Source: Alphaproteobacteria bacterium (GTDB lineage Bacteria; Pseudomonadota; Alphaproteobacteria; MPNO01; UBA830). From it: DNA of 64,000 nt. Position numbers and translations under genes: made by a program. The stretch lies in assembly GCA_965243135.1 (NCBI GenBank), contig OZ251539.1, positions 1,664,001-1,728,000 of the forward strand. The letters are read 5' to 3'. Below the pieces are notes generated by a model. It was not told where the DNA came from, did not search any database, and saw only the letters and a program-made list of their open reading frames with translations. The number at the start of each line of letters is the position of its first letter. Positions within the stretch are counted from its first letter, which is position 1. This document shows positions 43,813 through 53,518 of the stretch, piece by piece.

Positions 43813-45054
43813 ATGCCTGCAAACGCTCCGCGCGCCATGCACGAAGAAGACAGTCCGCGCGGCTGGGTGATCGTCGGCGCGTTGTTCCTCATGCTGGGAT
43901 TCGTTATCGCAGCCCGCAACAGCATCGGGCTGATGATGCCGTTTTGGAAGGAGGATCCCGGCTGGTCCTACAAGTTCGTCGCGACCGTCGGCGGCGTAAT
44001 GATGGCGACCATGGCGGTCGCCGCTCCGGCGGCGGGCGCGATCGTCGATCGCTGGGGGTCGCGCGCCGTCTATGCGGCCGGCATGTCCGTCGTCGGCCTG
44101 GTCTATATCCTTTGTTCGCTCATGACCGAGGAATGGCAGCTCGTCGCGCTGTTCGGCATCGTTGGCGGCGTCGCGTTCGCGGCGATGTCGCCGTCGCTCG
44201 TCTCCACCACCGTCGCTCACCACTTCCGGACGCGTCTGGGACTTGCCACCAGCATCGCCACGTCGGGGAGCACGGGCGGTCAGTTCGCGCTGATGCCGTT
44301 GCTAGCCTTCCTGGTGACCGCGATCACCTGGCGCAACGCGTTCGCGGCAGTAGGCGTCGCGGTGCTCGTCGTCGGGCTCGTCGTCTACCTCCTGATCGGC
44401 CGGGAGCCGCCTCGGCCCGTTCCCTCCCGGGGCCGGCAATCCTCCATTTGGGTTACGCTGCGCATGCTTTCAAGGCGTCCCGTGTTCTGGCTCCTCGGGG
44501 GCGGGTTCTTCGTTTGCGGCTTCACGACAGCCGGCACAGTCAAGATCCACCTCATTCCCTACGCCGTGGCCTGCGGATTTCCGCCCATGCAAAGCGCGAC
44601 CGCCTACGGCGTGCTGTCGTTGTTCAGCCTGATCGGAATGATCGTCTACGGCGCGCTTTCCGACCGGTTTCACAGGCCGGCGCTGCTGGCGAGCTGCTAC
44701 TTCATGCGCGCGTTGACCCTGATCCTTTTACTCCACATCGCGGGCAGCGCCCCCCTGCTCTACGTCTTCGCCGTACTATTCGGCGTCTTCGATTACGCGA
44801 CCTTTCCGATCGTCGCCAGCCTCGTCGCGACCCACATCGGCCGGGCGGTAATGGGCGTCACCATGGGTTTGATTTTCTCGCTTCATTCGCTCGGCGGCGC
44901 GCTCGGCTCGTTCATCGGAGGCTATCTGTTCGACCTGTTCGCCCGCTACGACTGGGTATGGGTGGTTTCGGTGGCGCTTGCGCTGCTGGCGGCGCTTCTC
45001 ACCATCTTCATCAGGGAAAACCGCGAAGCAGCCCACGCCCCGGCTCTCGCTTGA
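43813..45054 (+). CDS. MFS transporter
   Basis: About 12 hydrophobic segments. Motif A appears twice: GAIVDRWGSR and GALSDRFHR. Confidence 0.92.
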   Translation: MPANAPRAMHEEDSPRGWVIVGALFLMLGFVIAARNSIGLMMPFWKEDPGWSYKFVATVGGVMMATMAVAAPAAGAIVDRWGSRAVYAAGMSVVGLVYILCSLMTEEWQLVALFGIVGGVAFAAMSPSLVSTTVAHHFRTRLGLATSIATSGSTGGQFALMPLLAFLVTAITWRNAFAAVGVAVLVVGLVVYLLIGREPPRPVPSRGRQSSIWVTLRMLSRRPVFWLLGGGFFVCGFTTAGTVKIHLIPYAVACGFPPMQSATAYGVLSLFSLIGMIVYGALSDRFHRPALLASCYFMRALTLILLLHIAGSAPLLYVFAVLFGVFDYATFPIVASLVATHIGRAVMGVTMGLIFSLHSLGGALGSFIGGYLFDLFARYDWVWVVSVALALLAALLTIFIRENREAAHAPALA

Positions 45055-45878
45055 GCTGGCGAGACACGCGGCGCGGGCGCCTCGTTTGACTATAGATTTC
45101 GAATTTGCGGAGCGGCGGGATGTAGGGCCCGGAAAATGGAAGGCTGGAACGCTGCCGAACATATTTTGCGCATTCGTGAACAGCCACTTCTTTGAGAAAG
45201 ACAATGCGGATGAGGAAAAGGCGAGCCGGTTTTGCGCCGACGCTTTTCTGATATCGAGCTCTCTTGAGCTGAGTTTCGAATTGTCCTCCCTTTGTCGATT
45301 CTGAAACGCAATGTTCCGCCCTGGACCGAAGCCGACGCGGCTTGGCGCAAGCCGGACAATGATCCGTTGTGGACGGAAGGGAACATGCCCCATGTTTCGC
45401 CCCCGGGAACCGGCAGTCGCAACATACTGCTTATTTACAGTCCCGTTATTCTCTTCGATCAGTGACGGTCGCAGTTTCTTCAAGAAGAGGGACGATCTCG
45501 ATTTCAGCGTTCCGGCCTAAGGTGTTTTGGTTCTTGGCTTACACGACGCTTAGCAAACGAACGGATTGCCCTAGCGTGAACGTGGTTCGGAAGTACTGTC
45601 TGAACAGCGGTCGGATTTCGTTCGTAGGGCAAGATTCCGCATCGCGGCACTTGTGGAACGTGCCCACTCCTACGGACATTCGTTTGGTGTGGTCAATGTG
45701 GTCGATGTCGATGCCTTTCCAAGAAATTCGAAAAATTGCTAAGTGTCTCTACTTCGTGGTTGCAGCGACCTAGCTAATTGCTACGTCAACTTGGACGGCT
45801 TTCGGAGGCAGAAAAAGCCTATAGATGATAGCTTATTGATAATAAGGGTTTTGAAATAGGCTCGGACCTGCGGTCGAA

Positions 45879-46311
45879 ATGCGAGCGAACGCAAGCCTCA
45901 ACACAGGCGATGTGAAGCTGCTTCTCTCAAACCGAGGAGAAACCGCCAACGGTCGGAAAGTGACGAAGTGTGTGCGCATTTCAAACAGATATCTATGGGA
46001 TGAATTGAGCCTTGCATATCTTGATCCGAGAACGAAAAGTTATGCGCGGGCGAAGGCATGATTACGGCCGAAAGCCGGATGCGGGACTTCCGTATGTCCG
46101 GCTTAGCGAGTAGGGATAGCGCTTCATCAAAATAAAATTTTAGTTTTTTCGCGCAGTATTCGCCTACGAGGATCCCAACTCAGCTTATGGCCTCATCCAA
46201 AGACTGCATTGTGATGAAGCACTAGAAACGTGGGCGTAGGATTGGGCCTGGAGCGAAAGCGACGGAACATCCACCGGACCCTACCGCTAACGCGCCAGTC
46301 CTCGACTCTAC
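45879..46311 (+). mobile_element. 5'-truncated group II intron remnant (IEP C-terminus + domains V and VI)
   Basis: The ORF tail RISNRYLWDELSLAYL...ARAKA* resembles intron maturase C-termini. About 10 nt later comes a domain V hairpin AAGCCGGATGCGGGACTTCCGTATGTCCGGCTT (46072-46104, AGC triad, 2-nt bulge). The 3' end CGCGCCAGTCCTCGACTCTAC finishes at 46311. Confidence 0.85.
46119..46222. mobile_element. 104-bp MITE with 15-bp imperfect TIRs and TA duplication (IS630/Tc1-like)
   Basis: TA|GCGCTTCATCAAAAT ... ATTGTGATGAAGCAC|TA, a 13/15 inverted match. Its removal restores an intron-like D5-D6 junction. Confidence 0.75.
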
Positions 46312-46413
46312 TCCACGTCCGACAATCCGAATCCATTTGTGTTGTAATTCGACAACATCAGCGCGGATGCCGCCGAGGACCTCCAGCCCATCGGCATTTG
46401 AGAAGTCATCCTG

Positions 46414-46977
46414 TCAGTTTGGATCTTTATTGGAACATGCATGCCAGCATCTTTCCTCACAATCGTGCCAGCAGTTTTGCTCGCCCGTCCGATCCATCCT
46501 TTCCCTGAACGTTTCCTTGTATAAGAGCTTTGTTTTTTCGAAGGCCCTTTTCAGGTTTGCGGCATCCTCTTCTCCTCTCATGCCAAAATAAGGGAAGTGA
46601 TGAAAATATCCCCCAAAAATGTTATCACTATCACGGCAATAAGCACGTGTATCCAAGATGTGATAATGCCACATTGTGTCCATGATTTTGTTTGGGACAA
46701 TTGAGTGATCTGGGTAAGGAAATCTGCGGCACAAAGTAAGATATCTCTTGTACTCTATCTCTCCATCATCACATTGTTCTTTTGTCCAACTAACACCTTC
46801 CTCAACTTCCATCATCTTCGTTTTCACCATTTCAAGATCGATTTCAGCAATATCAGCATCGATGCGTTTGGATAGAAGAAATTCTATTCTTGGCATACTG
46901 ATCTTGTTCGTCATGAACACCGGATTGGGCAAGGAATTTCGGGTTTCCGTTCCGATTTTTTGAGTTAGTCCCGTCAT
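46414..46977 (-). CDS. GRDP-like (DUF1399-type) His-rich protein with C-terminal CWHDCEERCWHAC tail
   Basis: W....D..E.EYKRYL.L, IVPNK.MD.MWHYHILDT..Y, FG.YFHHFPYFG. GGAGA RBS directly after the upstream gene stop. AT-rich. Confidence 0.8.
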   Translation of the reverse strand: MTGLTQKIGTETRNSLPNPVFMTNKISMPRIEFLLSKRIDADIAEIDLEMVKTKMMEVEEGVSWTKEQCDDGEIEYKRYLTLCRRFPYPDHSIVPNKIMDTMWHYHILDTRAYCRDSDNIFGGYFHHFPYFGMRGEEDAANLKRAFEKTKLLYKETFRERMDRTGEQNCWHDCEERCWHACSNKDPN

Positions 46978-46989
46978 GGTTCATTCTCC

Positions 46990-47634
46990 TTAGTTAGACA
47001 GGTTGCTAGATGGGTAACGAGTGATCCAATAGCGCTTCAAAAAACGCTTCGGATCAGAAAACGCGTGACGACCATGCAATATTCTTCCGTTATCGACTAC
47101 CAACACATCGTCTGTAAGCATTTTAAACTCTGCAATCTTACATTCAGGCAAATTTTCATGAAACCGTGTGACCGATTCCTTTTGTAAAGGCGACAAATTA
47201 TGTTCCCGAACTAACCAGAAACTATAATAGATTTTAACCACTCCGTTCGCTATCTTTACCAGCGGGTGGTTCCCCTCATCATTTGCAAATACTTTATGTT
47301 CAAATAGATATATACTGGACAAGGCTTGCCGTTGTATTGGCGACAATTTTAGATACGCTGCTCGGGCATCTGCAAGGACAGTTTCACCACCTTCTTTTGA
47401 CGATCTAATGCAGATCCAAGCGACGTAATCTGCCTTCGGATGATCTGTATGGAAGCCTAGTGCCCGATTAGAGGTAACCAGATTCTCATTTTTCAAGTTT
47501 ACTTTCACATCAGTGATGTAGATTATTTCGCCCAATTGATTTGCAATGATATCCAATCCTTCCTGTCCCACACGCTCAAGAAGTGCGTACCCCATTTCAT
47601 GTAATTGTGCCATTGTACCATTTATCTTCATCAA
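46990..47634 (-). CDS. TauD/TfdA (clavaminate synthase-like) Fe(II)/2-oxoglutarate dioxygenase
   Basis: HTD facial-triad start, GGETVLAD, VVDNGRILHGR, and RFLKR (2OG-binding Arg). AT-rich, compact 214 aa. Confidence 0.88.
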   Translation of the reverse strand: MMKINGTMAQLHEMGYALLERVGQEGLDIIANQLGEIIYITDVKVNLKNENLVTSNRALGFHTDHPKADYVAWICIRSSKEGGETVLADARAAYLKLSPIQRQALSSIYLFEHKVFANDEGNHPLVKIANGVVKIYYSFWLVREHNLSPLQKESVTRFHENLPECKIAEFKMLTDDVLVVDNGRILHGRHAFSDPKRFLKRYWITRYPSSNLSN

Positions 47635-48449
47635 TTTCTCGTTAGCTCAGTTAATGTCCGTTCGTGAAGTGACAGCCTATTCGTCGAGGGGTCGCTTTCG
47701 ACCCCTTCAAAGATCTGGCGGCGTCTTGGATCGGGAGAGGGCGTTCGTTCCGGGCATCGGATTTGTTCGGTCCCCCCATGCACGGCTCCTCCGTCGGGCA
47801 GGCCCGGCAACGGAAGGTTTCGAGCGGTATTCCGCACGGAAGGTCTCGGGCGGATCGGACGCGATGCGCAGGGATCGGTGTCGATCGCCGGGCAGTCGTC
47901 GTTCGAACGGAGCGAGGAGTAGGCGAGAGCGGTGCCCCGGGATCGGCTCCCATCAATCGTCAGGGTCGGGTTACGACAGTGTGCTCCGAGGTCACCGAGC
48001 CTGTCCGGTAGCGCGCTCTTCCGAGTCGCGATGCCGGAGCCGGAGACAGCGAGCGATGAACTCGTTCCGGCGAGGGTCGACAGCGACGAGTTCGGACATC
48101 GGCAAGACGTTGGGGTGGGCAGGAAAGGCTGTTGGTCGGTCGCGGACGCGCTGACCTCATGCACACCCACCCTTGACGACAGCCGTTCAAAATCGCTCAA
48201 CACTGTCCGCATAGAATCACTTTCGACCCGTGTAGATGGAAAAATAGCACAACCGCTTCGTGGAAGTAACAATTATTTGGCGGGAACCTTGGTACGGTCC
48301 CTCCTGGAAACGCGACTACGACCGTCGCCCTACATGGAGCGGATTTACAGCTCCGCCAACAACGCTTAGGATAGGAACGTTCGTTCCGGCAGGGAACGAT
48401 GCCCGCGACAGAGTCGCCGAACTCGCCCACCGAGCAGGGATCCCGGGAC

Positions 48450-53441: not shown

Positions 53442-53518
<77 letters not shown>

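Follow-up and report, generated by a model that had tools for sequence, protein, structure and literature searches.

A sizeable domain fused to a short peptide that undergoes modification is an arrangement found in BURP-domain peptide cyclases and in nitrile-hydratase-like/Nif11 leader precursors, and the BURP domain is itself a metal-dependent catalyst. A second arrangement relies on two enzymes that act in sequence on one residue of a peptide. SmaO, an Fe/2-oxoglutarate (2OG) Asp hydroxylase, and SmaX, a small helical His-ligated iron enzyme, act sequentially on a peptide Asp, which is converted to β-hydroxy-Asp and then to aminomalonate in the pathways of both peptides made by the ribosome and modified after translation (RiPPs) and non-ribosomal peptides, the two enzymes being sometimes fused (PMC12186529). 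The locus described here is a two-gene cassette from a 64,000-nucleotide stretch of an Alphaproteobacteria bacterium (contig OZ251539.1, positions 1,664,001 to 1,728,000), hereafter the window. Gene 1 encodes a compact oxygenase of the TauD family, and gene 2 a protein of the GRDP-like (DUF1399) family that ends in a disordered, cysteine-rich tail. Its two genes form a self-contained unit that is horizontally mobile. We tentatively favour, with a confidence that stays a little short of even, a reading in which gene 1 hydroxylates the tail of gene 2 to give a metal-binding or redox-active protein or peptide.

Much less has been described for the family of gene 2. The first-pass annotation of this DNA, made from its letters alone, had stated that GRDP/DUF1399 proteins have no established biochemistry, and the literature searches agree. 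The portions available of papers on plant GRDPs report developmental and stress phenotypes only, with no enzymatic or metal-binding role. In the literature searched, PF07173 appears in one soybean paper, and no paper was found on bacterial GRDP-like, DUF1399 or UCP032817 proteins or on this gene pairing (supplementary tables not covered).

The partnership of the two genes, postulated from this single locus, is now strongly supported by its relatives. A scan with one genome per species yielded 502 stretches with gene 2 relatives, the best 80 of which (44-68% identity; cited below, like the plasmid loci, by their L numbers) were analysed. A check of the neighbourhoods of gene 2 homologs for TauD-like enzymes had been suggested, and the association was found: a gene 1 homolog adjoins the gene 2 homolog in 63 of the 80 loci, lying directly upstream on the same strand in 61 and downstream in L011 and L016. 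In five loci (L025, L051, L059, L069 and L071) the two form a single open reading frame (ORF) of 391-447 amino acids (aa) with the oxygenase first, and these fusions sit in two separate clades of the tree of the gene 2 core. The pairwise distances of gene 1 and gene 2 correlate across 40 loci (Mantel r 0.884, a value that none of 2000 permutations reached), which indicates that the pair has travelled as a unit. Judged by record titles, the 63 paired loci span at least eight phyla (Pseudomonadota, Bacteroidota, Spirochaetota, Cyanobacteriota, Verrucomicrobiota, Myxococcota, Calditrichota and Chloroflexota), a spread that could be inflated by binning errors in metagenome-assembled genomes (MAGs). 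The clade of the window copy holds marine Gammaproteobacteria, Leptospiraceae, Prochloron-like cyanobacteria, one member of the Calditrichota and one alphaproteobacterial MAG; the paired unit is also present in MAGs named as sponge and ascidian symbionts, and in many Bacteroidota. At two loci (L020:7287-7961, L054:7290-7799) the gene 1 homolog either falls into two ORFs or is matched just in part, which may reflect a pseudogene or a sequencing error.

The gene 2 tail also bears on the link between the oxygenase and its partner. In this cassette, a disordered stretch of 23 residues follows the folded domain and carries the motif CWHDC-x2-R-CWHAC. The tails linked to an oxygenase share the pattern C-W-H-D-C-x-x-R-C-[W/H]-[H/N]-x-C plus a few residues, preceded by a linker that varies in length. 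A CWHxC unit occurs in each of the 63 oxygenase-bearing loci versus 1 of the 17 others, and an Asp occupies position 4 of the first unit in all 63 oxygenase-linked tails, including that of L072, whose first unit reads CKRDC, as against none of the 9 alignable tails from loci that lack the oxygenase. The only CWHDC...CWHAC tail without an adjoining oxygenase is that of L029, where an ISL3 transposase gene (L029:9-1031) ends 11 nt before gene 2; this locus looks like a recent disruption, with the transposase in place of gene 1. In nine of the 17 oxygenase-less tails the C-x3-C-x3-C-x3-C spacing is kept, while K/T/N-R replaces W-H and A/N/S replaces D. Another seven of these loci have other Cys-rich tails, and the oxygenase-less relatives retain the whole His/Asp core together with a Cys-rich tail. 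The earlier proposal that the dioxygenase modifies its partner's tail thus gains support of an indirect kind, from a tail that tracks the oxygenase (63/63 versus 1/17) and from a relative of gene 1 in a methanobactin operon (see below).

In the favoured reading, gene 1 would use the tethered tail of its partner as substrate. The likeliest reaction would be hydroxylation of the Asp in C-x-x-D-C to β-hydroxy-Asp, with the neighbouring Trp or His as the alternative. The Asp, invariant in all oxygenase-linked tails, is the best candidate residue. β-Hydroxylation of Asp or Asn is a classic reaction of this fold, with AsnO one of the top structural neighbours of gene 1. The helical His/Asp core would bind a metal, and would either present the tail or carry out cysteine chemistry on it. 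Since oxygenase-less relatives keep both the core and a Cys-rich tail, the core is more likely to have a task linked to the cysteines or to a metal than one linked to the hydroxylated residue. The product would be a metal-binding or redox-active tail built from cysteine, histidine and a hydroxy acid, and would remain attached to the protein, given that the pair is accompanied by no protease or exporter.

Four regularly spaced cysteines with histidines also suggest metal or redox chemistry, and in an alternative reading gene 2 would serve gene 1, either as a metal-binding or thiol-redox protein that delivers iron or electrons or as an on/off switch, the true substrate being encoded elsewhere. 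The automatic name of the nearest ESM Atlas cluster, "4Fe-4S ferredoxin-type domain-containing protein", points the same way, and tight coupling, fusions and co-evolution would suit any obligate partnership. We nevertheless consider such a helper role improbable, given that 16 of the 17 oxygenase-less relatives persist alone with no recurrent partner, and that it would be left unexplained why W, H and D in particular have been lost from their tails. TauD-family enzymes are not known to need dedicated electron or iron donors, which we also count against it.

The assignment of gene 1 as an Fe(II)/2OG oxygenase draws on several comparisons. The Pfam TauD family (PF02668) matches it at 62.3 bits versus a cut-off of 27 (E 8.9e-17), over profile positions 85-267 of 267. 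The complete HxD...H...R Fe/2OG site that had been read from the sequence holds up well, as H62, D64, H187 and R197/R201 are invariant in 45 orthologs, and in a PDB profile search the HTD aligns with the HTD of gamma-butyrobetaine dioxygenase (BBOX1); the roles given to these residues, an iron triad and 2OG-binding arginines, are the putative ones of the family. The AlphaFold2 model (mean predicted local distance difference test score, pLDDT, 92.5) keeps the double-stranded β-helix of the clavaminate-synthase-like (CSL) type. A Foldseek comparison of this model with the PDB returned 266 matches at E<=1e-3, the top ones with template-modelling scores (TMq) of 0.75-0.80: TmpA (6npb, 0.80), BBOX1 (3o2g, 0.77), AsnO, KDO1 and clavaminate synthase. 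The amino-acid β-hydroxylases AsnO, KDO1, VioC and OrfP are among its close structural neighbours. NCBIfam scores for TmpA and gamma-butyrobetaine dioxygenase lie far below their cut-offs (45.7 versus 400 and 39.6 versus 414.75), several amino-acid β-hydroxylase models also match far below cut-off, and gene 1, at 214 aa versus models of 366 positions, has neither the full-length score nor the N-terminal domain of an equivalog of TmpA or gamma-butyrobetaine dioxygenase. Gene 1 and all its orthologs measure about 205-220 aa, as compared with 320-390 aa for the best-matching PDB enzymes, so that gene 1 represents a conserved minimal form and not a truncation. Sequence and model together characterize it as a minimal TauD/CSL-type barrel oxygenase, for which 2OG-dependent activity is predicted.

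The identity of these neighbours brings up a different substrate. In the manner of PhnY/PhnZ or TmpA/TmpB, the pair could form a two-step small-molecule pathway in which gene 1 hydroxylates a metabolite and gene 2, as a metalloenzyme, oxidises it next, with the Cys-rich tail needed for nothing more than metal loading or redox support. TmpA and gamma-butyrobetaine dioxygenase do come out best for gene 1 in NCBIfam, in PDB sequences and in fold comparison, and gene 2 carries an invariant His/Asp cluster in a helical domain, as HD-domain oxygenases do. Moreover, an Fe/2OG enzyme with a helical His/Asp enzyme, sometimes fused, is the layout of known cascades (PMC12186529). Such a pathway is decidedly unlikely in our judgement. 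Gene 2 has no HD or DUF6817 Pfam match and no HD-domain oxygenase among the PDB fold matches listed (0 at E<=1e-3), and no recurrent transporter, regulator or further catabolic gene stands beside the pair outside the Bacteroidota loci with LytS/LytTR genes. It would also leave unexplained why W-H-D in the tail tracks the oxygenase, and why distant relatives of gene 2 lie beside Gly-rich His-Cys peptides.

The family membership of gene 2 is less immediate. Its own score against the Pfam GRDP-like family (PF07173), 18.8 bits, is under the cut-off of 22.7. A GRDP-like match at E<=1 is nonetheless obtained for 51 of 61 orthologs (best 2e-5), and three distant plasmid homologs exceed the cut-off with 25.0, 23.9 and 23.4 bits. 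The nearest ESM Atlas clusters are PF27765 "UCP032817-like" and PF07173 (0.92-0.93), the PF27765 assignment of gene 2 relatives being seen through these clusters only; a second Atlas search with PF27765 and PF07173 excluded gave no usable match. AlphaFold2 predicts an all-helical core, in which most 10-residue blocks between residues 21 and 160 have pLDDT >90, followed by a tail (165-187) below 50. Foldseek found 0 PDB matches at E<=1e-3 (best TM ~0.25), and a sequence search of the PDB gave nothing below E 0.3. The only significant fold matches of the model are giant-virus proteins named as GRDP-like, the top one in BFVD being a Harvfovirus "Glycine-rich domain-containing protein-like" (E 2.2e-4, TMt 0.67, root-mean-square deviation 3.0). 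The giant viruses with such fold relatives are Harvfovirus, Orpheovirus, Gaeavirus and Terrestrivirus, and one weak sequence match was seen in a 595-kb uncultured phage genome (LR756511.1, 158886-159143). The GRDP/DUF1399-like label of the first-pass annotation can thus be kept on the strength of orthologs, plasmid homologs, Atlas clusters and viral fold, although the Pfam score of gene 2 itself does not carry it, and the protein probably belongs to the GRDP-like family.

The His-rich core that had been pointed out in gene 2 also withstands comparison. The residues of the His/Asp cluster, together with D138, are invariant in 61 orthologs, and most of these invariant residues recur in seven plasmid homologs that are 32-39% identical. 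The cluster may represent a metal or catalytic site. Assignment of gene 2 as an HD-domain or SmaX protein was considered and rejected, since neither the window protein nor its 61 orthologs have a DUF6817- or HD_4-like Pfam match at E<=1, and no PDB fold match was obtained at E<=1e-3. A role as a defence system was likewise set aside: the PADLOC 2023 models return nothing for gene 2 and, for gene 1, only PDC-S05 at E 0.045, though several loci sit among defence-type or mobile genes. A prediction of the complex of gene 1 and gene 2, both supplied as alignments, returned no answer (score 0.00, mark 0.32) and speaks neither for nor against binding.

More distant relatives place the GRDP-like domain in another setting. 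Homologs of gene 2 were found on eleven plasmid records, and the contexts of nine were examined. On a Halomonas plasmid and on two of Pseudomonas savastanoi, an ORF of 42-44 aa (L002:4650-4778, L005:4643-4777, L006:4512-4646) is followed by the GRDP-like gene and then by a gene for a protein of ~440 aa. The short ORFs have a terminal glycine run with an embedded His-Cys-Gln and end in Trp, and the three-gene arrangement looks like a precursor-peptide module. The ~440 aa protein has a MatE match in Halomonas only, which is weak and below cut-off. The peptide ORF of Halomonas adjoins an N-acyl-homoserine lactone synthase/LuxR pair. In Maritalea the GRDP-like gene is paired with a gene for a ~440 aa protein without a MatE match, while in Azospirillum it is followed by a methyltransferase and then by a different, longer TauD protein. 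The homolog on the Cupriavidus pinatubonensis plasmid (L007:4935-5549) has a long C-terminal extension with several PAYCAR-like Cys repeats, which resembles multi-core fused precursors. Taken together, these plasmid contexts suggest that in the wider family the GRDP-like domain accompanies short Cys-containing peptides, either fused or separate.

A second link to peptide modification comes from gene 1. Eight records of the plasmid collection match it, the best match being a 215-aa TauD/TfdA protein on plasmid pMSC49c of Methylosinus sp. C49 (30% identity over 198 residues, E 3e-28, hhalign probability 99.9%). Its gene (L090:3953-4600 = L092:1078-1725) is the last of a methanobactin operon and overlaps the end of mbnF by 4 nt. 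The operon is annotated as mbnA-mbnB-mbnC-mbnM-mbnF, lies beside a TonB-dependent receptor and holds a multidrug and toxic compound extrusion (MATE) exporter. The MbnA it encodes has 27 aa, with an Asp, two Cys and a Trp in the last nine residues. Reviews presumably refer to the dioxygenase of methanobactin operons as "MbnD", a name that the literature searched did not confirm. No role for this enzyme was found in the literature searched, and a 2013 genome-mining paper does not mention a dioxygenase. The other seven plasmid matches of gene 1 are stand-alone Rhizobium genes with uninformative surroundings.

Within 6 kb on either side in the 80 reference-genome loci, recurrent neighbours are few. 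A LytS-type histidine kinase (PF06580) lies upstream in 13 loci and a LytTR-type response regulator in 12, all of them in Bacteroidota. These genes stand ~0.7-2.3 kb upstream of the pair (L027, L028, L030, L032, L036, L042, L053, L056, L060, L067, L074 and others); the kinase is short, and the LytTR domain of the regulator is weak. No other neighbour family occurs in more than seven loci. A Pfam scan of 116 flanking proteins identified housekeeping, mobile-element (integrase, transposases, reverse transcriptases, Mu F-like protein) and defence-type genes (GmrSD, HNH, ParE, SymE, DUF4011 helicase-nuclease), and neither set contained a recurrent protease, exporter or transporter, or further enzyme, with one MatE-like neighbour in L054. 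Radical SAM genes stand beside the pair in five loci (L037:5816-7081, L048:5816-7081, L056:8479-9795, L018:6803-7417, L032:2709-3593), too few to be called a partner. Three of them carry a B12-binding domain, and of the other two only that of L032 is confirmed by Pfam, the L018 candidate being a shorter ORF that falls into the same similarity cluster and lacks any Pfam match at E<=1e-5. A small ORF of 95-115 aa follows the pair in five loci. In a Chitinophagaceae MAG, the gene immediately upstream of a gene 2 relative that lacks the oxygenase codes for a protein with a tyrosinase (copper oxidase) domain (L076:6781-7716).

The plasmid contexts, the methanobactin operon and the regulators all bear on a further possibility, in which the cassette would make a secreted RiPP or chalkophore: the GRDP-like domain would be a long leader or recognition domain, and unlinked host machinery would cleave off the modified tail and export it as a copper- or metal-binding peptide or as a signal. 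A gene 1 homolog does end a methanobactin operon that also holds a MATE exporter; GRDP-like genes of Halomonas and Pseudomonas savastanoi do lie between a 42-44 aa peptide gene and that of a ~440 aa protein; and a LytS-type kinase and a LytTR-type regulator are found upstream in 12-13 Bacteroidota loci. On the other hand, no recurrent protease or exporter accompanies the oxygenase-linked pairs, the tail is strongly conserved across phyla and not variable, the supposed leader carries invariant His/Asp residues of the kind seen at catalytic or metal sites, and neither a double-glycine nor any other cleavage motif can be made out ahead of the tail. We consider a secreted product improbable. The idea of a fused RiPP precursor, put forward in the first-pass annotation, fits poorly in two respects, the conserved core and the lack of a recurrent protease or exporter among the neighbours scanned; a disordered tail after a folded domain, with an oxygenase next to it, would be compatible with such a precursor.

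A bolder version of tail modification, which we hold to be unlikely, would see in the GRDP-like/DUF1399 core, which has no solved structural relative, a new kind of metalloenzyme domain whose substrates are peptides that contain cysteine: in this cassette its own tail in cis, and on some plasmids, in trans, separately encoded Gly-rich His-Cys peptides. The core and gene 1 would jointly build a metal-binding or redox cofactor from Cys, Trp, His and hydroxy-Asp, a protein-tethered analogue of a chalkophore.

Several observations weigh against hydroxylation of the tail by gene 1. The association of tail and oxygenase is perfect in the sample but rests on few independent events: in the tree of the gene 2 core, absence of the oxygenase amounts to four changes, at least two of them forced by well-supported branches (the tree leaves out L067 and L054, and the row of L077, with a very long branch, is unreliable). 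With only two to four such events, the association could reflect the history of a subfamily and not function. The sample consists of the best 80 of the 502 stretches. The core has a role independent of hydroxylation, as the oxygenase-less relatives keep it along with a Cys-rich tail. In addition, the nearest characterised relatives of gene 1, TmpA and gamma-butyrobetaine dioxygenase, act on small molecules, the AlphaFold2 model docks the tail nowhere (pLDDT <50), and a scan of 46100-48000 for one consensus type found no sigma-70-like promoter. Finally, the argument as a whole is comparative only.

In the window, gene 1 and gene 2 are two intact, translationally coupled ORFs on the minus strand (Table 1). 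Gene 1 has 214 aa when read from TTG 47634, and ATG 47631, one codon in, is the likelier start. Its stop codon is TAA 46992-46990 and the ATG of gene 2 lies at 46977, with a gap of 12 nt between the genes; the tight coupling through TAA, GGAGA and this gap was thus correctly described in the first reading of the DNA.

Table 1. Features of the two-gene cassette and its flanks, in window coordinates.
Feature	Position	Strand	Description
Gene 1	46990..47634	-	Compact TauD/TfdA-fold Fe(II)/2OG oxygenase (predicted); ORF, Pfam, AlphaFold2 model
H62-T63-D64 codons	47443..47451	-	HxD of the putative iron-binding triad; H62 and D64 invariant in 45 orthologs
H187, R189, R197 and R201 codons	47032..47076	-	Putative third iron ligand (H187) and candidate 2OG-binding arginines; invariant in 45 orthologs
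Ribosome-binding site GGAGA	46985..46989	-	Within the 12-nt gap, directly after the gene 1 TAA; read from the sequence
Gene 2	46414..46977	-	187 aa, GRDP-like (DUF1399 / UCP032817-like), probable; all-helical, with disordered Cys-rich C-terminal tail
His/Asp cluster, residues 100-132	46582..46680	-	D100, W103, H104, H106, D109, T110, Y113, D116, H126, H127, P129, Y130, G132; candidate metal or catalytic site
Four-cysteine tail motif, gene 2 residues 169-181	46435..46473	-	CWHDCEERCWHAC; proposed target of gene 1
Downstream flank	45055..46413	.	1.36 kb from the major facilitator superfamily (MFS) transporter gene to gene 2; no convincing gene; GC ~0.47-0.56
Upstream flank	47635..48398	.	0.76 kb up to the molybdenum hydroxylase large-subunit gene; no recognisable gene; GC host-like to intermediate

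The much lower GC content that had been noted for the cassette is borne out by measurement. In 200-nt windows its GC is 0.39-0.47 versus ~0.62-0.68 for the host, GC at third codon positions (GC3) is 0.40 and 0.45 in the two genes versus 0.75-0.88 in 46 host ORFs, and sharp compositional breaks fall at ~47650 and ~46400. In this genome the cassette is a recent import. Such a contrast is uncommon among the relatives: in the 72 loci with enough flank, the median difference between cassette and host GC is -0.014, and the cassette is lower by at least 0.08 in 9 of them, the window showing the largest difference (~-0.2).

The cassette stands as a lone unit among housekeeping-type chromosomal genes. 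An MFS transporter gene (ending at 45054) lies on one side and the three subunits of a molybdenum hydroxylase (starting at 48399) on the other, and farther neighbours in the window include DnaE, PPK2, parts of a tripartite ATP-independent periplasmic (TRAP) transporter, PlsX and a membrane pyrophosphatase. The DNA on either side simply looks non-coding, and its GC is intermediate or close to that of the host. The decayed mobile DNA in which the cassette had been thought to be embedded gained no support from these searches: none of 31 stop-to-stop fragments (>=45 aa) in 45055-46413 and 47635-48398 has a Pfam match at E<=0.05, an Rfam search gave no match, a repeat search found no pair clearly bounding the cassette, no second copy of the cassette is present in the window or the loci of relatives, and blastn against the plasmid collection returned no match. 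No tRNA gene lies close by either; the sole RNA gene found in the window, a tRNA-Pro (GGG) at 53442-53518 (-), is ~6 kb from the cassette with no evident link. A 213-aa ORF at 47631-48272 (-) abuts the start of gene 1; its GC3 is intermediate (0.63), neither NCBIfam nor Pfam matches it, and it probably does not represent a gene.

An import of this kind could also be a silent passenger in this genome, intact because it is too recent to have decayed. This explanation is separate from the other three alternatives, and we see it as rather unlikely. The GC3 of 0.40-0.45 versus 0.75-0.88, the lack of a promoter-like site in 46100-48000 and the position of the cassette alone between housekeeping-type chromosomal genes are consistent with it. 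However, neither ORF has lost any residue that is invariant or nearly so in its family, and the promoter scan covered one consensus type. Furthermore, silence would bear on expression in this genome and not on the function of the unit.

As regards novelty, the protein families involved, PF02668, PF07173 and PF27765, are already catalogued, and on the favoured reading the unit would belong to a known kind, that of Fe/2OG hydroxylases whose dedicated substrate is a protein or peptide. If the core were a new metalloenzyme domain, a domain that bacteria, giant viruses, fungi and plants have in common would acquire its first biochemical function. The tail would, if hydroxylated or cross-linked, represent a new substrate class for TauD-family enzymes and a new protein-derived metal or redox site. 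The unassigned dioxygenase gene that some methanobactin operons carry may find an explanation here as well. Movement of the unit from phylum to phylum is clear and suggests that the trait is portable, with metal handling as a possibility. With two small soluble proteins, or their natural fusion, and a motif of 13 residues, the system is cheaply tractable by mass spectrometry.

How the cassette relates to described systems can now be outlined. TmpA and BBOX1, the closest solved structures and sequence families, share with gene 1 the iron triad and the C-terminal arginines. Unlike gene 1, they are enzymes of 366-388 aa that act on free quaternary-amine metabolites, and gene 1 covers only ~45% of them (TMt 0.45-0.47) because of their length. 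The core motif W-H-x-H-x-L-D-T...Y...D of gene 2 is found in plant GRDP1 and GRDP2 and in DUF1399 (PF07173), but in contrast to the plant GRDPs, which have Gly-rich domains, the bacterial proteins consist of a single domain and a Cys-rich tail. With BURP- and Nif11-type systems no relation in sequence or fold was found, and the tail studied here is conserved and not variable or repeated, the Cupriavidus homolog excepted. The new sulfoxide-forming CoiH family, which has a TauD-linked subgroup, was also considered and is unrelated, its active-site residues extending to position 332; its authors saw no obvious metal or cofactor binding site (bioRxiv 10.64898/2026.08.26.747419).

SmaO/SmaX resembles the cassette in several ways. 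Both comprise an Fe(II)/2OG hydroxylase with a helical His-rich partner, fused forms (five here) and an Asp in the putative substrate (63 of 63 tails), and the wide spread of the pair recalls that of SmaO/SmaX over many cluster types (PMC12186529). They differ in that gene 2 is not an HD or DUF6817 protein by Pfam or fold, that the putative substrate is the partner's own tail in place of a separate precursor with a double-glycine leader, and that no class-defining RiPP enzyme or ATP-binding cassette transporter that contains a peptidase lies nearby. As gene 2 is not a SmaX or HD-domain protein, the likeness to SmaO/SmaX lies in layout and not in family membership.

The methanobactin operon of Methylosinus sp. 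C49 differs from the gene 1 locus in gene content, as MbnA, B, C, M and F are encoded there and a GRDP-like gene is absent. Conversely, MbnB (DUF692), MbnC and MbnA were neither seen among the NCBIfam-scanned neighbours in the 32.5-60.4 kb part of the window nor recurrent in the 80 loci, in scans that included no Mbn-specific search. The dioxygenases themselves fall into one length class, with 215 versus 214 aa, and have the HTD, H-G-R and R-x3-R-W motifs in common. The Methylosinus enzyme, whose function there is predicted from annotation, adjoins the genes that mature a short, Cys-containing, metal-binding peptide.

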